Below, piece by piece: positions 3,100-21,556 of a stretch of 64,000 nucleotides of DNA (position 1 is the first letter of the stretch; every line of letters starts with the position of its first letter). The position numbers were made by a program, and so were the translations under genes. A model generated the notes under the pieces. The model saw nothing but the letters and a program-made list of their open reading frames with translations. It was not told where the DNA came from and did not search any database. The DNA comes from an uncultured Alphaproteobacteria bacterium. Lineage in GTDB: Bacteria; Pseudomonadota; Alphaproteobacteria; HIMB59; GCA-002718135. The stretch spans positions 8,423 to 72,422 of the forward strand of contig CACBMH010000002.1 of the NCBI GenBank assembly GCA_902539825.1, in the 5' to 3' direction.

Positions 3100-4415
3100 T
3101 GTATTTAATTTATGGAATTCAAAAATCAGGACTTTCTATAGTAAATTATTTTAAAAATAAAAAAATAAAATTTAAGATGTGGGATGATAATCCGATAGTA
3201 AGAAAAGCTATAAAAAAAAAATATAATGAAGATTATTTTTTTAATATTAAAAAAGATAATTTAAATGATTTTGAAAAAATTTTTGTTAGTCCAGGAATTT
3301 CTTTGCGACAAAAAAAATTTCAAAGAAAAAATATATTAAAAAAAGTAAATAGAGACGTAAATTTATATATTTCAAATTTAACAAATCAAAAGATTGTAGC
3401 CATTACTGGCACAAATGGGAAATCAACAACAACTAAATTAATAGGAGACATTTTAAAAAAAAATAAAATTAAAACATTTGTTGGAGGTAATATTGGAGAA
3501 TCATTATGCAATGCTTTTCTTATGAAAAAAAATTACGATGTTCATGTTATCGAATTAAGTTCTTTTCAATTAGAAACTGTTAAGTCATTGGATAGTAAAA
3601 TATCAGTAATAACAAACTTATCTGGTGATCATTTAGATAGATACAAAGGTATTAGTGATTATATTAAGCAGAAAAAAAATATTATTTCTAAAAATGGAAT
3701 TAATTTGTTGTCAATTGATGATATTTATTCAAGAAAAATATTTAATAATAAAAAAATTAAAAATAAAATTAGTTTTTCTTTAGTTAATAAATCAGCTGAT
3801 TGTTTTGCTAATGATGATTATATTTTAGATAATTACTTCAAAAAAGGCAGGAAATTATCAATAACAAAAATTTCAAGAGATTTAGAAGGTCATTTTAATA
3901 TTCAAAATATTTTAATAGCTTACATATGTAGCAAAATATTAAAACTACCAGAAACTAAATTTCTTAAGGTAATTAAAACATTCAAAGGTCTTCCATTTAG
4001 ATCATCTACAATTTTTACAAATAATAAATTAAAAATAGTGAACAATAGTAAATCAACTAATTTAAATTCAACAATAAATTCAATTATAAACTTCAATAAT
4101 ATTTACCTAATCTTAGGAGGTATAGCTAAAGAAAAAAATTTTGAAATTCTTCTTAAATATAAAAATAAAATTAATTGTGTTTATACCTATGGAAAATCAG
4201 GATCTTTTATTCAAAAAAAATTAAAAAAAGAATTAGTTGTAAAAAGGTCAGAAAATTTAAGATCAGTTATTAAAGAAACTCTCAAGGATATTAATAAAAA
4301 TTCAAATAAATCAACTATATTATTTGCCCCTGCATGTACCTCTTATGATCAATATAAAAATTTTGAAGAAAGAGGCATTCATTTTAATAAATTAATTAAA
4401 GATTATTTAAATTAA
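3099..4415 (+). CDS. murD: UDP-N-acetylmuramoylalanine--D-glutamate ligase
   Basis: ITGTNGKSTT P-loop, Mur ligase architecture, dcw position. Confidence 0.85.
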   Translation: MYLIYGIQKSGLSIVNYFKNKKIKFKMWDDNPIVRKAIKKKYNEDYFFNIKKDNLNDFEKIFVSPGISLRQKKFQRKNILKKVNRDVNLYISNLTNQKIVAITGTNGKSTTTKLIGDILKKNKIKTFVGGNIGESLCNAFLMKKNYDVHVIELSSFQLETVKSLDSKISVITNLSGDHLDRYKGISDYIKQKKNIISKNGINLLSIDDIYSRKIFNNKKIKNKISFSLVNKSADCFANDDYILDNYFKKGRKLSITKISRDLEGHFNIQNILIAYICSKILKLPETKFLKVIKTFKGLPFRSSTIFTNNKLKIVNNSKSTNLNSTINSIINFNNIYLILGGIAKEKNFEILLKYKNKINCVYTYGKSGSFIQKKLKKELVVKRSENLRSVIKETLKDINKNSNKSTILFAPACTSYDQYKNFEERGIHFNKLIKDYLN

Positions 4416-6561: not shown

Positions 6562-7921
6562 CAGTAAAATTCATTTTATAGGTATTTCGGGAATAGGAAT
6601 GTCTGGTATTGCAGAATTGATGTTAGATAAAGGATATTTGATACAGGGTAGTGATATATCAGTAAACGACAACACAAAAAGATTAAAGAAAAAAGGTATA
6701 AAATTTTTTTTAGGACATAATAAAAAAAATATTAAAAATTCACATGCCGTTGTTTATTCATCAGCTATAAAAAAAAATAATCCTGAAATAAAAGAGGCAT
6801 ATAAAAAAAAAATCCCTGTTCTTTCTCGAGCTGATATGCTTTCAGAATTGATGAAAAATAAAAAATCTATTGCCATAGCTGGATCTCATGGAAAAACTAC
6901 TACTACTAGTTTGGTAGGAAACATTTTTAATGAAGCAGGTTTAGACCCTACTATTGTAAATGGCGGCATTATCAATTCTTTTTCTAAAAATAATCGCTAT
7001 GGAAAAGGTGAGTGGATGATTGTTGAAGCAGACGAAAGTGACGGCACTTTTTTAAAGCTCCCACATCAAATATCAATAATTACTAATTTAGATATTGAAC
7101 ATATGGATTTTTATAAATCAAAGAAAAATTTAATTAATGCATTTGAAAAATTTATAAATCTTCTTCCGTTTTATGGAACCACAATAATGTGTTATGATGA
7201 TAATAACCTTAAATTACTAATTAATAAAATAAAAACTAGAAATATTTTAACTTATTCAATAAAAAATAAAAAAGCAGATGTATTAATCTTTGACATTATA
7301 CAAAACAAACTAAAAACTTCTTTTAAATTAAAAATTAACAATAAAATTATTCATTCCTCTAATTATAAATTTACTATCAATGCAGTTGGTAATCACAACA
7401 TTCTAAATGCTACTGCAAGTATTGTTGCGGCTAAATTAAATGGAATAAAAAATAAAGATATTAATAACGCGTTGACTAATTATGTAGGTGTAAAGAGAAG
7501 ATTCTCATTTATTGGAAAAAAAAATAAATCTTTTGTTTATGATGATTATGCACATCATCCAACAGAAATTGCAGCTACATTAAGTGCAGCTAAAAGTCTA
7601 AAAAACAAAGTAATAGTTGTTTTTCAACCACACAGATACACTAGAACTAAATTACTAATGAGAGAATTTATAAATGTTTTATCTAAAGTCGATTATTTAT
7701 TTTTATTAGAAACCTATCCAGCTGGAGAAAAGATTATCAATGGCGCCACTTCAAAAGATATATTTTCTAAACTATTAAAAAAAAATAAAAATACTACATA
7801 TTTAAAGAATATAGGTGATTTAAATAAATTAATGCAACCTCATACAATGAATCAAAATACGATTGTTTTTATGGGCGCTGGATCAATATCAAGTATTGCA
7901 AAAAAATATTTGAATAACTAA
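6551..7921 (+). CDS. murC: UDP-N-acetylmuramate--L-alanine ligase
   Basis: GISGIGMSG, AGSHGKTTTT P-loop, DDYAHHPTE. Confidence 0.9.
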   Translation: MKINSKIHFIGISGIGMSGIAELMLDKGYLIQGSDISVNDNTKRLKKKGIKFFLGHNKKNIKNSHAVVYSSAIKKNNPEIKEAYKKKIPVLSRADMLSELMKNKKSIAIAGSHGKTTTTSLVGNIFNEAGLDPTIVNGGIINSFSKNNRYGKGEWMIVEADESDGTFLKLPHQISIITNLDIEHMDFYKSKKNLINAFEKFINLLPFYGTTIMCYDDNNLKLLINKIKTRNILTYSIKNKKADVLIFDIIQNKLKTSFKLKINNKIIHSSNYKFTINAVGNHNILNATASIVAAKLNGIKNKDINNALTNYVGVKRRFSFIGKKNKSFVYDDYAHHPTEIAATLSAAKSLKNKVIVVFQPHRYTRTKLLMREFINVLSKVDYLFLLETYPAGEKIINGATSKDIFSKLLKKNKNTTYLKNIGDLNKLMQPHTMNQNTIVFMGAGSISSIAKKYLNN

Positions 7922-15876: not shown

Positions 15877-16507
15877 ATGAACAAACTTGTTTTACTTAGA
15901 CATGGTCAAAGTCAGTGGAATTTAGAAAATAGATTTACTGGTTGGAAAGATGTTCCATTAACTGAAAAAGGCATTAACGAAGCTAATAATGCAGGACGTC
16001 TATTAAAAAAACATAATATAAAAATTGATAAAGTTTTTAGTAGTGTTTTAGAAAGAGCAAATAAAACAGCAGAAATAGCTATGAAAGCATTAGAGATAGA
16101 AAATTTATATGAAAATGGAAATTTAATTTATGAAAAAAAACCAAAATCTAAATGAGAGGGATTATGGAGATTTAGTTGGTTTAAATAAAGCAGAAACTGC
16201 TGATAAATTTGGAAAAGAACAAGTACACATATGGAGAAGATCTTATGATATACCGCCTCCAAACGGGGAGAGTCTTAAGGATGTAGTTAATCGAGTTTCT
16301 CCTTATTTTACTGAAACAATTCAACCACATATTTTAAATAAAAAAAATGTTTTAATTGCAGCACATGGTAATTCCTTAAGAGCAATTATGATTAAAGTCG
16401 GTATGTACAAACCTGAAGAAATATCTTCTATAGAACTACCAACTGGTAGTCCATTGTGTTTAGACTACCAAAATGGCGAATTAATTGAACATTATTACTT
16501 AGATTAA
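15877..16507 (+). pseudogene. gpmA: 2,3-bisphosphoglycerate-dependent phosphoglycerate mutase, split into two ORFs (15877-16155, 16130-16507) by a +1 frameshift in an A8 run (16133-16140)
   Basis: N-part has [18 protein letters not shown]-part has LNERDYG and AAHGNSLRA; removing one A gives a continuous ...[13 protein letters not shown]... junction. Confidence 0.85.
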
Positions 16508-16935
16508 TTTTTTTTATAATTTGAAAAATTAATTACATTATCCTTCTTTGATATATTGGTCTCTGATTTTTTATTTACTTTCTTCTGCATTTTATTTTTT
16601 TGCAAAATTAAACCAAAATTAGATGAAGGATCTGCAAATGAAACAATAGCATTATAATTAATTTTTAAGTTTGTTTTGAAATCATCAAATGAGAGTGTAA
16701 TAGAAAAATTATTTTTATTTATTTCTAAATCATAATATTCATATTGAATAATAATTGTCATTTGTTGGGGATATTTTTGTTTTAACCAATTAGGTAGTTC
16801 AACATTTTTATGATTAGTTAAAAATGTAATATAGAGATGATTATTATTTGATAATCCATTATCTTTTATGTTTTTCAGAATATCTTTAAATACATTTAAC
16901 ATATTTTTATCTAGTATTTTTTGATATTCAATCAT
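16504..16935 (-). CDS. sspB: SspB-like ClpXP specificity-enhancing adaptor (alphaproteobacterial type)
   Basis: pattern HLYITF..(V)ELP..L...YP..MTIIIQ..Y.DL......F...LSF......L.I....I..FADPS recalled from the SspB family; basic C-terminal tail. Confidence 0.65.
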
Positions 16936-17880: not shown

Positions 17881-18030
17881 TTTTTCCTTACATTATTTAA
17901 ATGGGCGTCTTTAGAACAACCTTAATTTTATTATATAAAGAAAATATTAGGTTTTTGGAAACTTCTTCGTAAAAACTTCGTAGATAGGTTTTTAGAAAAA
18001 TTATTGATATTACTAGATAATATTAAAAAA

Positions 18031-18248
18031 GTGGGGCGTTCTGTTGCTCGGTGCGTGAACTTTTCTCAATGCAAGGACGCGTGAGCGAACACCCAAAAGT
18101 TTAAGCATTTCCTTTATTATTCGCTTATTCTTTCTTAAAAAAGTTTATAGCACATGGTTATTAAAATATAAAATTTTTAATTAAAAAGACGCGTATCGGC
18201 CGCGTAAATTGAGGGCAATTAATTCAAGTTCGTGGTATTATTATCAAG
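18031..18248. repeat. core copy 1 plus L arm (218 nt up to the cargo ATG)
   Basis: aligns without gaps to 19879-20096; only 2 mismatches in the first ~119 nt; contains GACGCGT at 18076 and GACGCGTATCGGCCGCGT at 18188-18205. Confidence 0.9.
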
Positions 18249-18719
18249 ATGAAAAAAGTTTTGTTTATGTTTTTCTTGTTATTGTCGACAAATGTATTTT
18301 CTAAAAATCTTGATTACTTTAAAGGTAGTTGGCTTTGTATTGAAGAAAAGTCTTTAGGATACAATTGGAGTAATCTAGAGAGCAAATGGAAAAAAATAAC
18401 AAATTTTAAGTTAGAAAAACGCATTTTTAAAACATTTGATGATAGTGAATGCGAAGGTGTTAAGAAGAATAGTTATAATTTTTGTGCTAGTGTTTATAAA
18501 TTTGGACTAAAGCCATTATTCAAAACATATTTTTATCATGTTGATAAGAGTGAAAGTAATTGGTTAAATGAATCTTATGTTGGGGGTACTTCTTTTGGTG
18601 AATTTAAAATGTCCGAAAAAGGTGAATTTATTTATTCAGCTGGAATACCGGGCAACCCAACAAATTTAAATGATAAGGATTCAATGGTTATAAGTGTTGG
18701 TTCTTGTACGAAAATATAA
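18249..18719 (+). CDS. hypothetical secreted protein (156 aa, Sec signal peptide, 5 Cys in the mature part)
   Basis: ORF with N-terminal MKKVLFMFFLLLSTNVFS signal-like sequence; no family recognised. Confidence 0.55.
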   Translation: MKKVLFMFFLLLSTNVFSKNLDYFKGSWLCIEEKSLGYNWSNLESKWKKITNFKLEKRIFKTFDDSECEGVKKNSYNFCASVYKFGLKPLFKTYFYHVDKSESNWLNESYVGGTSFGEFKMSEKGEFIYSAGIPGNPTNLNDKDSMVISVGSCTKI

Positions 18720-18721
18720 AT

Positions 18722-19030
18722 ATGAATGAAAAAAATAAACACGCAAGATTTTTTGATTGTAAAACTTTAGAAGATTGTCACAACATTGGCATTTACCATC
18801 TAATGGATTTTCTTGAAATATTTGGTGGTGAAGATGTTGATGCATTCGTTGCCTCTGATGGTAGTCATTTTTTAGTTGATGCATATTCATTTAATGGAGA
18901 TCAAATTGGTTTAACTTTAAACGAAGAAGCAACAAAACTTTACAATAAAAATATGCCTAAGGATCAACAAAGAAAAATTTGGGGGCATTGTGTTAAGCTT
19001 GCTGAAGGTATCTATGAGGAAATTATATAA
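18722..19030 (+). CDS. hypothetical small acidic cytoplasmic protein (102 aa)
   Basis: ATG 3 nt after the upstream stop; no family recognised. Confidence 0.45.
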   Translation: MNEKNKHARFFDCKTLEDCHNIGIYHLMDFLEIFGGEDVDAFVASDGSHFLVDAYSFNGDQIGLTLNEEATKLYNKNMPKDQQRKIWGHCVKLAEGIYEEII

Positions 19031-19031
19031 A

Positions 19032-19757
19032 ATGAAAAATAAAAAATTAATAATTGATACCATGACAAAATTTGTATTCGAAGTTACTAAAAATATTGAT
19101 TATAAAAATGTATCTATAGTAATTATTGATGATCAAAAGTTTACTTCTTTTGATCAATTAAAAAATTTACTCATTTCTATTACTAAAAAAAATAAAAACT
19201 TACTTATAGTTAGACCAAATTGGCAAAAATGGGAAAATGCAATATTATCTGGAGATATTGCTGAGTTAGGAATTAAAAAAATTTCTCAAATATTCAAAAA
19301 AAATTTAGATGAAACAAAAAAATTGCTCGCTTCGTTTCCAAAAAGAAACAAAAATAAAGATAATTATTTTTATGGGGATGTTCTAAAAGAAGAAAATAGT
19401 GCAAATATTTTTAATTTAGTTTTTCAATTAAGATTAAGTTTTTATGATAAAACACCAAACGAACGTTCAAAATTATTAGATAAAAGTGATTGGTTTAGAG
19501 GCTATTATGAGCAAGTTATTCCCTTTCATAGAATTGGCAAAATAAAAATTATACCTATCTCAATAAATGATTTTAAAACTAAAAAGAATAAGCCTCAAGA
19601 TAACCTTTTAAATATTTTCGCTAACTTTACTGGAGCAAAAATAATTAAATCTGTGAAAACCGCAAAAGAAAAAGATATAGGATTTGTAAAAAAAATTACT
19701 TTAAACAAACAACCGAAAAATATTTATAGTAGCGATAAAATTACTTTAGTGAATTAG
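19032..19757 (+). CDS. hypothetical Lys-rich protein (241 aa)
   Basis: ATG 2 nt after the upstream stop (operon-like packing); no family recognised. Confidence 0.5.
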   Translation: MKNKKLIIDTMTKFVFEVTKNIDYKNVSIVIIDDQKFTSFDQLKNLLISITKKNKNLLIVRPNWQKWENAILSGDIAELGIKKISQIFKKNLDETKKLLASFPKRNKNKDNYFYGDVLKEENSANIFNLVFQLRLSFYDKTPNERSKLLDKSDWFRGYYEQVIPFHRIGKIKIIPISINDFKTKKNKPQDNLLNIFANFTGAKIIKSVKTAKEKDIGFVKKITLNKQPKNIYSSDKITLVN

Positions 19758-19804
19758 ATTTTTTTTAAAGCAATTATTAATATTATTTAATTTTTTCTTC
19801 GCAA

Positions 19805-20096
19805 GACGCGTATAGGACGCGTTTTATTGGAGCATTTCAGAAAGAACCCAATAATTAAAAGGAAATCTAGATTAACTAATGGGGCGTTCTGTTGCTCGGT
19901 GCGTGAACTTTTCTCAATGCAAGGACGCGTGAGCGAACACCCAAAAGTTTAAGCATTTCCTTTATTATTCGCTTATTCTTTCTAAAAAAAGTTTATATCA
20001 TTAATTTGTAAAAACATAAAATTTTTAATTTAAATGACGCGTATAGGACGCGTAAATTAAAGGCAATTATTCCAAGTTTATGTTAATGTAAATTAT
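19805..20096. repeat. complete R arm - core copy 2 - L arm junction (attP-like composite)
   Basis: left part aligns to 21135-21231 and right part to 18031-18248; carries GACGCGTATAGGACGCGT twice (19805-19822, 20036-20053). Confidence 0.9.
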
Positions 20097-21044
20097 ATGA
20101 AAAAATTTTTAGTTTTGATAGTTCTAGTTTGTTTTTCACCATCAATTTTTACGAAAGAATTGAATTGTTTTTTGGGTACTAAAAATATTAATAGTAAAAT
20201 ACAGGGATTTACTGAGGATGGTAAATTTGTTGAATGGTATGATACACTAAAAATAGATAATCTTAATGAAGATTATGATTTAAATTTACATATATTAGAA
20301 GATAAAAATAATAATCTGATTATACAAAAGCAAAAATACATAAGTGATTTTAATACAAAACTATATCCTTTAGTACAATTCCCCGATGAAAATATTTTGA
20401 TTTATTTAATAATACTTGGTGTACTTAAAGATCATAATAATGACTCACTAAATCCTCAATTAAGTTTATTAGAAATATCAGAAATAATTAAATCAAATAA
20501 TTTCACCTATGACGATGTATTAAAAAACATTGAATACATCTATCAAAAAGATTTTAATTTAAAATATGAAGGAAATAATAATCTTGGTCCATATGGAATA
20601 CTTTCTACTAGTTTAGATTTAGCTAAAATATTATTGGAAGATTATTCTAACGAACAAATTGTACAATATTTCAAACAAATAATGGATGTATACGATAATG
20701 ATCTAAAAAAATGGAAACAAGGCATTACATTTAATGATCCAATTTATTTAAATTTAGATAATAAAGATATTGCTTCTACTTGTTACAATATGATGAGTGA
20801 AGATAAATTTCTAAATACTTCAATAGCAACAAGCGAAATAAAACTATGTTTACAAGAGAATAATTCAGATAATTTAAAAATGAACAATATATATGAAACT
20901 TTTAAAGATAAAAAAATAAATGATTATTCTTATCTAATTAATTATTCTCTAAATCAAAATTATTCAATTCATAAAGATGAAGGTTTTTTACGTGGTGAAC
21001 ATAATAGAATTCTAGAAAGATTTTATTATGGTTTTTGTGAGTGA
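20097..21044 (+). CDS. hypothetical secreted protein (315 aa, Sec signal peptide)
   Basis: N-terminal MKKFLVLIVLVCFSPSIFT signal-like sequence; no family recognised. Confidence 0.55.
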   Translation: MKKFLVLIVLVCFSPSIFTKELNCFLGTKNINSKIQGFTEDGKFVEWYDTLKIDNLNEDYDLNLHILEDKNNNLIIQKQKYISDFNTKLYPLVQFPDENILIYLIILGVLKDHNNDSLNPQLSLLEISEIIKSNNFTYDDVLKNIEYIYQKDFNLKYEGNNNLGPYGILSTSLDLAKILLEDYSNEQIVQYFKQIMDVYDNDLKKWKQGITFNDPIYLNLDNKDIASTCYNMMSEDKFLNTSIATSEIKLCLQENNSDNLKMNNIYETFKDKKINDYSYLINYSLNQNYSIHKDEGFLRGEHNRILERFYYGFCE

Positions 21045-21134
21045 TTTAAGATTATTTCTTGTTATTTAAAATCCTAGTGTTTTAATTTACAATCATGAAG
21101 GCGATGTTTGATAATCAAATTTTTTAATTGAAAT

Positions 21135-21231
21135 GACGCGTATATGACGCGTGAAGCTGGAGCATTTTAAAAAAAACTACAGAAATAAACTAAAAATCAA
21201 GAATGTAGTGGGGCGTTCTGTTGCTCGGTGC
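21135..21231. repeat. R arm copy 2 plus core copy 3 (core = 3' end of ssrA)
   Basis: GACGCGTATATGACGCGT (21135-21152) and TGGAGCATTT box as in 19805-19840; 97 nt versus 98 nt from arm site to end of core. Confidence 0.85.
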
Positions 21232-21453
21232 CCCCGACCGCGCTTACCTAGAATCTAGGCAGCAAGTGCTAATCTATTATCGTTAGCGTTTATAAAATAG
21301 CCCGATAACGGTGGTACAATACCGGATAAAGTCTTTGTCTTTGAATTACCGTCAAACCTATTTCGTCCCCATATTGGTGGAGACGCCGGGTACTGCCCCC
21401 GGGTCCGAATAACTTATTGCACAAAGCATTTATTATCTTAGTTGCAAGGCAAC
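21208..21453 (-). ncRNA. ssrA: circularly permuted (two-piece) tmRNA gene: acceptor piece (to CCA at 21375), 4-nt spacer, coding piece (from GGGG at 21370)
   Basis: minus strand reads ...CCGGG-GGCAGTA-CCCGG-CGTCTCC-ACCA / ATAT / GGGGACG...; acceptor stem GGGGACG:CGUCUCC with G3:U; tag frame GCT AAC GAT AAT AGA TTA GCA CTT GCT GCC TAG = ANDNRLALAA* (21255-21287); 5' limit is inferred from the putative promoter. Confidence 0.85.
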
Positions 21454-21459
21454 ATATTC

Positions 21460-21487
21460 ATTATACCTTAAACTATTTATACTTGAA
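21460..21487 (-). promoter_or_regulatory. putative sigma70-type promoter of ssrA
   Basis: minus strand TTCAAG (21487-21482), 16-nt spacer, TATAAT (21465-21460); sequence match only. Confidence 0.4.
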
Positions 21488-21556
21488 AGATTTGTCTTGA
21501 AACCTAGCAATTAAAAAAAAAAATTGTTACTAATTAAGACATAAAATAAAAAAAAT

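Follow-up and report, generated by a model that had tools for sequence, protein, structure and literature searches.

The closest described counterparts of the system reported here are the integration systems of phage lambda, Tn916 and Tn1549, with which it shares an integrase, here of three predicted domains, and an attachment site (attP) of ~270 bp in which a short core is flanked by arm repeats unrelated to the core. As in lambda attP, adjacent arm sites are one helical turn apart and the integrase gene lies beside attP. In the window, a 64,000-nucleotide stretch of contig CACBMH010000002.1 from an uncultured alphaproteobacterium, the system is represented by GACGCGT repeats surrounding copies of the 3′ end of ssrA, the gene for transfer-messenger RNA (tmRNA). 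We regard these repeats as candidate arm-type sites to which a tyrosine integrase of the lambda-like (heterobivalent) kind, directed at the 3′ end of the SAR11 tmRNA gene, would bind through its N-terminal domain, and assign this explanation a probability of roughly 85%. Unlike in lambda, the target is the ssrA 3′ end, the sites are arranged 2+1+2 in one orientation, the integrase is only ~19% identical to lambda Int, and many arm specificities are found on one core. Lambda and HK022 represent the reverse case, with the same arms and different cores.

Other precedents are found among elements that do not encode their own integrase. Cis-mobilizable elements (CIMEs) are defined as lacking genes for integration and transfer while retaining attL and attR, and occur in tandem at one att site (PMC5704250). 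The units in the window are similar in that they carry no integration or transfer genes, have exact cores and intact arm sites, and are arranged in tandem at ssrA. CIMEs have, however, been described as decayed integrative and conjugative elements or integrative and mobilizable elements of Firmicutes, whereas the units found here are 0.7-2.7 kb long, have their own promoter-like box and reside in a streamlined marine alphaproteobacterium; their likely helper is a 5.8-kb replicative episome and not a conjugative element. The ssrA islands of Dehalococcoides are also located in tandem downstream of ssrA, bounded by 20-bp direct repeats of the ssrA 3′ end (McMurdie et al. 2011, PMC3146451), and many of them have no integration module and were proposed to be cis-mobilizable (PMC3146451). 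These islands differ in using a serine recombinase (DsiB) and in being larger, and no arm-type sites have been described for them.

In marine bacteria, virion-encapsidated integrative mobile elements (VEIMEs) are small Pelagibacter-associated elements with an integrase and a primase/helicase, of which ~20% have no integrase (Eppley et al. 2022, PMC9618062). Some of their modules include periplasmic serine proteases, as do several cassettes described below. Contig L162, the 5.8-kb circular element examined here, resembles Pelagibacter-associated VEIMEs. At tRNA and tmRNA genes, tycheposons accumulate as tandem insertions (Hackl et al., bioRxiv 2020.12.28.424599). The searched text of the VEIME and tycheposon papers mentions no Pelagibacter ssrA attP, arm-type sites or arm-specificity classes. 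For SAR11 itself, Molina-Pardines et al. 2025 (PMC11796062) tied one genomic island to the tmRNA gene, reported partial tRNA repeats marking cassette insertion together with almost no integrases, and stated that no canonical mobile elements were found; arms, arm motifs and a cognate integrase family were not described in that work (PMC11796062). In the literature that we searched, of which the coverage was incomplete so that absence is not proven, there was no description of the arms, the specificity classes or an ssrA-specific integrase family.

The attachment core in the window is a 22-bp sequence that coincides with the ssrA 3′ terminus. It occurs in three exact copies with zero expected, and no others were found even when three mismatches were allowed. 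The repetition of the ssrA 3′ end at 19881 and 18033 indicates that two tandem elements have been inserted at the end of the gene. Both are bounded by direct repeats of the core that are identical to the target gene end: unit A (19903-21209, 1.3 kb) has one open reading frame (ORF) and unit B (18055-19880, 1.8 kb) has three. The features of the locus are as follows, starting from ssrA.

21207 to 21492, minus strand: ssrA, a permuted, two-piece tmRNA gene of the alphaproteobacterial type (220.5 bits with Rfam RF01849 over model positions 1-355, full length), of which the 3′ end is the attachment core
21210 to 21231, plus strand: core copy 1, GGGGCGTTCTGTTGCTCGGTGC, the ssrA 3′ terminus and the unit A junction on the ssrA side
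21121 to 21209, plus strand: unit A right arm, direct repeat D2, which aligns with the right arms of integrase-bearing elements
21135 to 21152, plus strand: unit A right-arm tandem sites, GACGCGTATATGACGCGT, with 11-bp period, 75 bp ahead of the core
20097 to 21044, plus strand: unit A cargo ORF of 315 aa with an N-terminal signal-like segment, without family match
20081 to 20089, plus strand: unit A extended -10-like sequence TGTTAATGT, 8 nt ahead of the cargo ATG, a putative promoter
20036 to 20053, plus strand: unit A left-arm tandem sites, GACGCGTATAGGACGCGT, at +155 from the core start
19924 to 19930, plus strand: unit A left-arm single site GACGCGT, at +43/+44
19903 to 20075, plus strand: unit A left-arm scaffold, 87% identical to 18055-18227 and homologous to other SAR11 left arms and the L162 attP
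19881 to 19902, plus strand: core copy 2, junction between unit B and unit A
19791 to 19880, plus strand: unit B right arm, recognized by repeat and arm alignment
19805 to 19822, plus strand: unit B right-arm tandem sites, GACGCGTATAGGACGCGT, recognized by motif match
18249 to 18719, 18722 to 19030 and 19032 to 19757, plus strand: unit B cargo, three ORFs of 156, 102 and 241 aa, without family match
18233 to 18241, plus strand: unit B extended -10-like sequence TGGTATTAT ahead of the cargo, a putative promoter
18209 to 18217, plus strand: unit B box TTGAGGGCA, a possible -35 or accessory box
18188 to 18205, plus strand: unit B left-arm tandem sites, GACGCGTATCGGCCGCGT, the same 18-mer being present within the right-arm pair adjoining the integrase gene of contig L137
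18076 to 18082, plus strand: unit B left-arm single site GACGCGT
18055 to 18227, plus strand: unit B left-arm scaffold, a repeat of the unit A scaffold
18033 to 18054, plus strand: core copy 3, the end of unit B distal to ssrA

The initial annotation of this DNA reported four same-orientation copies of the motif GACGCGT-N4-GNCGCGT at fixed distances from the core. This was borne out: GACGCGTNNNNGNCGCGT gave exactly four matches in the window, all on the plus strand (18188, 19805, 20036 and 21135), and none of 100 dinucleotide-preserving shuffles contained any match to the motif, with zero expected. Both single half-sites that had been listed, at 18076 and 19924, are present as well, and the 11-bp distance between half-sites recurs as the period of every tandem that we inspected. 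With the GGGG of the core as zero point, both left-arm tandems begin at +155 (ACGCGT at +156) and the right-arm tandems begin 76 and 75 bp ahead of the core start in the two units. The spacing is therefore as fixed as claimed, since the earlier values of 157 and 98/97 bp differ from ours only in the definition of the core start. An A/T-rich leader does precede three of the copies, but AAWTTTTTAATTNAAWT matches there only approximately. The clustering of G+C-rich 7-mers was also correctly noticed, as ACGCGT, for which 0.8 occurrences would be expected in 64 kb, was counted 11 times, nine of them inside 18077-21152. In 519 kb of SAR11 DNA, made up of the window and the 64 loci described next, 45 copies of ACGCGT were located in 33 kb of arm zones vs 13 in the other 486 kb, a ~50-fold enrichment. 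The motif is thus not a general genome feature. It is uncommon outside the arm context and is kept in the homologous arms of other loci.

Scanning one genome per species with the core 22-mer yielded 64 loci, nearly all from genomes labelled as SAR11-type single-cell genomes or metagenome-assembled genomes. About 20 additional core copies in these loci have no ssrA after them. The left arms that follow such additional cores have a common scaffold of ~200 bp in which a repeated 7-8-mer varies by class, the classes being GACGCGT, TTACGCGT, TTACGCAC, AGTCGCC, AACGGCAC and TTACGACGAG. In each left arm, one word fills the single site near +44 and both tandem halves near +156. The 140 nt ahead of each core contain a tandem pair ~75 bp before the core, of a class that matches the left arm of the same unit. 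This right-arm view adds the classes CTTCGTAG (the commonest), GTGTGTGC with variants, and GTGCACA; a TCCGGTT class is present only in a later tally of all loci.

The arrangement was conserved throughout the distinct left arms collected from SAR11 single-cell genomes and metagenomes. All 39 carry a tandem with 11-bp period, and its 6-mer recurs at the single site near +44 in 30 of them; six of the nine others have a short-arm scaffold in which there is no such site. The right arm carries the matching motif in 14 of 17 complete units, the three mismatches being due to degenerate intervening cores or a 1-nt variant. Right-arm tandems always have the 11-bp period and start 67-83 bp (mostly 75-79 bp) before the core; about 12-15 motif classes can be distinguished among them. 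The sites at -75/-64, +44 and +156/+167 are unrelated to the core and fixed on both arms, both in the window units and in the 39 related left arms. By this comparison of sequences, GACGCGT is one of a dozen or more putative arm specificities at the ssrA site.

The existence of other arm classes bears on an alternative that the initial annotation had raised, in which the self-complementary ACGCGT forms single-strand hairpins that act as attC-like recombination sites or as intrinsic terminators. The four window copies do fold, with 5-6 bp and -4.9 to -7 kcal/mol; three of them reach z scores below -3.8, the 18188 copy having a z score of -1.08. A simple scan flagged three copies as terminator-like on the minus strand, and the 19805 copy is followed by TTTTATT. 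The homologous arms of other classes, however, are non-palindromic and unfolded: classes TTACGCAC, AGTCGCC, AACGGCAC and CTTCGTAG gave 0 to -0.2 kcal/mol and class TTACGACGAG gave -1.9 kcal/mol, in no case better than shuffled sequences. What is conserved is the direct repeat of 11-bp period plus a third copy at +44, for which a hairpin model has no need. An attC-like role is further contradicted by the lack of any IntI-type integrase among the proteins found and by the recombination core being ssrA, while for terminators the T runs are weak and sites also lie upstream of cargo and at +44. The folding inverted repeats, IntI and attI that together define integron attC systems do not come together here, nor do the conserved hairpin and T run of an intrinsic terminator. 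Since most arm classes are non-palindromic the hairpin reading fails; we consider it highly improbable and the self-complementarity of ACGCGT incidental.

The units in the genome loci are 0.7-2.7 kb long, and their cargo comprises secreted trypsin-like proteases, a sulfatase, a transporter, methyltransferases and proteins of unknown function, with no recombinase among it. A regular-expression screen of the genome loci for tyrosine recombinases also returned nothing, using a pattern that was too strict and would miss the real integrase (HDLRAC). Searches of the window cargo proteins, and of a 173-aa ORF discussed below, against Pfam and PHROGs gave no family above threshold. The 241-aa third ORF of unit B (19032-19757) has a 73% homologue inside a AACGGCAC-arm unit of locus L073, which suggests that related cargo circulates under different arm 'addresses'. 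In locus L054 a tRNA-like sequence on the minus strand occupies the cargo position (oriented coordinates ~7010-7100), directly after an AGTCGCC-class left-arm tandem.

Integrase genes associated with these arms were found in metagenomes by scanning for the core followed by GTG, a pattern that excludes native ssrA. The contigs retrieved carry an ORF of 336-347 aa on the opposite strand that adjoins the right-arm tandem, in at least three arm classes, and the right-arm pair is positioned 0-30 nt upstream of its start codon. The protein matched PF00589 with 98.6 bits and a catalytic-domain match was obtained for 36 of 36 relatives; the segments AMRFGE, FHDLRA and SGHK...Y are read as the putative catalytic motifs. 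A total of 349 relatives were found at E <= 1e-20, all of them marine and some named Pelagibacteraceae integrase. P0161, a 60%-identical relative, is encoded directly beside ssrA in SAR11-type synteny. P0124 and P0129 adjoin AACGGCAC arms, either integrated at ssrA (L169-L171) or at an attP-like junction (L172), P0139 adjoins TACGCTC arms, and the right-arm pair next to the L137 integrase includes the 18-mer GACGCGTATCGGCCGCGT that is found in the window at 18188. Integrase P0121, of the GACGCGT class, is encoded on four contigs (5.8-5.9 kb) that come from different assemblies.

As modelled by AlphaFold (pLDDT 82), P0121 has three strands (residues 10-14, 20-26 and 29-35) and a helix (38-53) near its N-terminus, followed by helical and catalytic domains. 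When the full-length model was compared with the PDB, the best match was full-length lambda integrase 1z1b (E 3e-11), followed by Tn1549 integrase. The alignment with 1z1b extends over 356 columns, roughly both chain lengths, at the low sequence identity mentioned above. Models of the XerCD/dif type and the integron type were rejected, as the core does not resemble dif and the system has a dedicated integrase of its own, with a domain that looks arm-binding.

The variation among these integrases suggests how the arm classes are distinguished. The most variable residues fall in the predicted N-terminal strands, and pairwise identities calculated separately for residues 1-45 and for the rest of the protein gave the following values.

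L169 and L172, same arm motif AACGGCAC: 91% for residues 1-45, 78% for the rest
L172 and L157, different arm motifs: 63% for residues 1-45, 86% for the rest
L162 and L169, different arm motifs: 59% for residues 1-45, 85% for the rest
L162, L137 and L157 among each other, all with ACGCGT-like motifs: 80-89% for residues 1-45, 80-92% for the rest

N-terminal identity thus changes with the arm motif, whereas identity over the remaining sequence does not, a covariation which suggests that arm specificity is set by the integrase N-terminal domain. Since L169 and L172 have no gene in common except that for the integrase, the motif follows the integrase and not a replication module.

The location of the sites next to start codons could also be explained if the repeats were operators at the integrase and cargo promoters, bound by a repressor or a regulating excisionase and not involved in recombination. 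This fits the right-arm pair just ahead of the integrase start codon, the left-arm pair located shortly ahead of an extended -10-like box that precedes the cargo ATG, and the presence of an HTH_17 gene in L169. It does not account for the right-arm pairs in the window, which are downstream of cargo with no gene to regulate, or for the single site at +44, which is far from any start codon. Moreover, the motif varies together with the N-terminal domain of the integrase, and the integrase is the only protein shared by elements of one motif. We therefore deem a purely regulatory function very unlikely. A dual role, in which integrase binding to the arm sites also autoregulates int, is compatible with the arm-type explanation.

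Some further observations concern the integrase-bearing elements. Tandem arrays that include such units are present in L078 and L050. In L078 (single-cell genome AG-912-N10) tblastn detected a frameshifted ssrA-specific integrase gene at 503-1509 within the ssrA array, so units with an integrase gene are also resident in SAR11 chromosomes and undergo decay there. The L169 element encodes a second, distant tyrosine recombinase of 25% identity (6685-7845, minus strand), the HTH_17 protein, which is of the AlpA/excisionase type (4166-4375), and a weakly matching DUF1376 protein, but no DUF5906 protein.

A circular form of the integrase-bearing element was found in contig L162, one of the four contigs that encode P0121 and a 5.81-kb circle with a terminal overlap of 127 nt. 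The other three, contigs L163-L165, are independent, circularly permuted assemblies that align to L162 in two permuted blocks with 99.6-99.8% identity. The gene order on the circle is int, ORFs of 102, 70, 178 and 68 aa, a 719-aa DUF5906 primase/helicase, and ORFs of 79 and 141 aa. An integrase and a DUF5906 protein on a small circle are a satellite-like feature, which applies to L162 only and not to the window units. The attP of L162 lies upstream of int. Given in the orientation of the window, the start codon of int is followed by GACGCGTAAATGACGCGT, the right-arm scaffold, the core of 22 bp and the left arm, in which GTGAAACGG..TAATGACGCGT, with the single site at +44, precedes an A/T-rich scaffold and TTACGCGTATATGACGCGT. 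The attP sites are a GACGCGT pair, the core, a single GACGCGT and a mixed pair of TTACGCGT and GACGCGT, spaced as they are in the window, and the attP aligns with the window unit junction and its arms with the sites in register.

The DUF5906 protein raises the possibility that the repeats are replication-origin iterons to which the primase/helicase binds, as in P4 and PICI-type satellites. Both the 5.8-kb circle and L172 encode such proteins, and iterons are typically short direct repeats in helical phase beside A/T-rich DNA. The sites are, however, arranged symmetrically about the att core at fixed distances, with the right-arm pair abutting the integrase start. L169 and L172 have the AACGGCAC motif, near-identical integrase N-termini and no other common gene, L169 being without DUF5906, whereas the DUF5906 proteins of L172 and L162 are homologous (26% identity) and yet the elements have different motifs. 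In addition, cassettes without replication genes retain all five sites. The motif tracks the integrase and not DUF5906, which speaks against binding by the replicase or by another element-encoded protein, and we give the iteron explanation little credence.

Viral sequence collections yielded no counterpart. The integrase had no relative in IMG/VR, and the unit junction gave no match to GenBank phages with blastn in distant mode. The 28 matches of the motif in IMG/VR were all single copies in unrelated contexts on contigs of 36-69% G+C and were attributed to chance. The core 22-mer had 0 matches there, the 16 matches of a 16-mer were all on unrelated contigs of 48-69% G+C, and matches of the CTTCGTAG tandem were unrelated coding repeats or occurred in other contexts.

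The suggestion in the initial annotation that recombinase arm-type sites flank a core in the manner of lambda attP is supported by these comparative data, namely the ssrA core, the fixed positions, the neighbouring integrase gene, the circular attP and the N-terminal covariation. The arm-type explanation predicts the following mechanism. Excision would join the right arm, core and left arm to an attP of ~270 bp with five same-orientation sites. The N-terminal domains of the integrase would bind the arm sites while its core-binding and catalytic domains would bind the core, and a bending protein, probably from the host, would act on the A/T-rich stretch between +44 and +156. The resulting intasome could recombine attP with ssrA, or attL with attR. 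New elements would integrate at the intact ssrA end, by which older units are pushed outward. The window units would be non-autonomous and CIME-like, moving only with the help of a cognate integrase provided in trans or in cis. A plausible source of it is the circular 5.8-kb element that encodes an integrase and a primase/helicase, or a relative of that element inserting at the ssrA site. The right-arm pair beside the int start might in addition allow the integrase to regulate its own expression.

Several findings weigh against this explanation. A tblastn search with the integrase found none in the window, where an excisionase or replication gene is also lacking, and a pattern screen, again too strict, found no tyrosine-recombinase-like ORFs within 9-30 kb; without an integrase in the window, function in this genome depends on a protein from elsewhere. 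A matching attP was found neither in IMG/VR nor in GenBank phages. All five sites have one orientation, unlike in lambda attP, in which the P and P′ arm sites are inverted relative to each other. The integrase N-terminus scored 17 bits with Arm-DNA-bind_4, in 5 of 36 members and under the cutoff of 22.3, and a match to AP2 was also under threshold, so that the assignment of the N-terminal fold rests on the model. Finally, the left arm of the cassettes ends in a right-arm-like AAATTnAGGGCA box, whereas that of integrase-bearing elements ends in a core-like TGCTCGGTGGTC.

Part of this evidence would also fit a situation in which the sites are arm-type by descent but the window units are immobile, fixed relics, their conservation reflecting only recent origin. 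No integrase is encoded in the window, degenerate units exist (an empty CTTCGTAG unit in the window and a decayed right arm in L076), and no circular form of an integrase-less cassette was seen in the loci and contigs tallied. Both window units nevertheless have exact 22-bp cores and all five sites. On metagenome contig L150, from another sample and with a different left neighbour, the unit B left arm, first ORF and start of the second ORF recur at 99% DNA identity. Integrase-less cassettes of several classes keep the order arm, promoter-like box, cargo, arm, and the same ocean samples contain a cognate integrase that circulates on an episome. We regard fixed relics as an unlikely explanation, albeit one that deserves serious consideration.

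The empty unit is an older unit of the CTTCGTAG arm class at 17903 to 18032 on the plus strand, with a degenerate core TGGGCGTCTTTAGAACAACC at 17903-17922. Here the left arm passes directly into the right arm, the point of fusion being exactly the CTTCGTA tandem (17965-17983), whereas in L040, L065, L034 and L081 these arms flank a 173-aa minus-strand ORF without family match. From this comparison, the cargo of the empty unit appears to have been lost through recombination between arm repeats. The fused arms, the right-arm-like box after the left-arm tandem of cassettes and the occurrence of related cargo under different arm classes point to a possible second recombination route at the arm repeats.

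Such a route is part of a broader scheme that we put forward tentatively and consider rather doubtful. In it, a dozen or more integrases would have the ssrA end as their common landing pad, using one core with diversified, mutually orthogonal arm-binding domains and sites. The very small, promoter-equipped cassettes without integrase would form an integron-like array of exchangeable genes, each being taken up individually by the matching satellite integrase, possibly with the second route at the arm repeats, and the whole would be a main mechanism of gene flux. If this is true, it would operate in a lineage that has long been called free of mobile elements.

No bacterial lineage in the ocean is more abundant than SAR11, which is usually described as lacking mobile elements. 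For studying how its flexible genes move, an attB (the ssrA 3′ end), an attP architecture, a family of cognate integrases and a circular 5.8-kb carrier are now defined. The data suggest a mobilization route for integrase-less cassettes with secreted proteases, transporters and unknown secreted proteins. Attachment sites of the lambda type and CIME-like cassettes are already known; what is notable here is the unusual diversification of arm specificity at a single SAR11 core. The many specificities on one core are a natural orthogonal set of domains and sites for studying DNA recognition by arm-binding domains, and, for annotation, the signatures of arms and core make it possible to find the boundaries of such cassettes in genomes and metagenomes of SAR11. 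With attB, attP, integrases and carrier all defined, the system is directly testable in vitro or in a heterologous host.

Many cassettes have a conserved CATGnTAnnAT-like box ahead of the cargo ATG. In cassette-type left arms, AAATTnAGGGCA is followed by an extended -10-like TGnTAnnAT 8-20 nt before the cargo start (18209-18241 and 20057-20089 in the window, and many other loci), and a similar TTRGRGCA box follows the right-arm tandem. Judged by their sequence and position, TTGAGGGCA and TGnTAnnAT after the left-arm pair may constitute a cargo promoter, and the cassette boxes near the left- and right-arm tandems may be either a cargo promoter or a site for an accessory protein. A simple sigma-70 scan gave no excess over shuffles and did not single out the putative cargo promoter, so it provides no support for or against it. 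In integrase elements L162, L137, L157, L172, L156 (upstream of int) and L050 (~6340), the left-arm tandem is followed by TGCTCGGTGGTC(A/G)TATTTG. This box resembles the 3′ half of the core (TTGCTCGGTGC) and does not occur in the window cassettes; possible roles are those of an additional core-type site or of part of an origin.

The genes flanking the locus are of SAR11 type, with ftsQAZ, lpxC, fumC, gpmA, sspB, cytochrome b561 and rhodanese on one side and folA, thyA, mrp, hflKC and degP on the other. ARAGORN likewise predicted a tmRNA at the ssrA locus, with tag ANDNRLALAA. Relatives of the window DHFR detected by homology search were almost all on contigs of <2 kb. The sspB gene (16504-16935), which encodes an adaptor for ssrA-tagged proteins, is ~4 kb from ssrA with the island array in between. 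The adjacent gpmA-like phosphoglycerate mutase gene (15877-16507) is present as two overlapping ORFs of 92 and 125 aa, split at an A8 run (16133-16140), whereas syntenic single-cell genomes have one ORF of 209 aa. The split is a frameshift, due either to a sequencing error or to the gene being a pseudogene.

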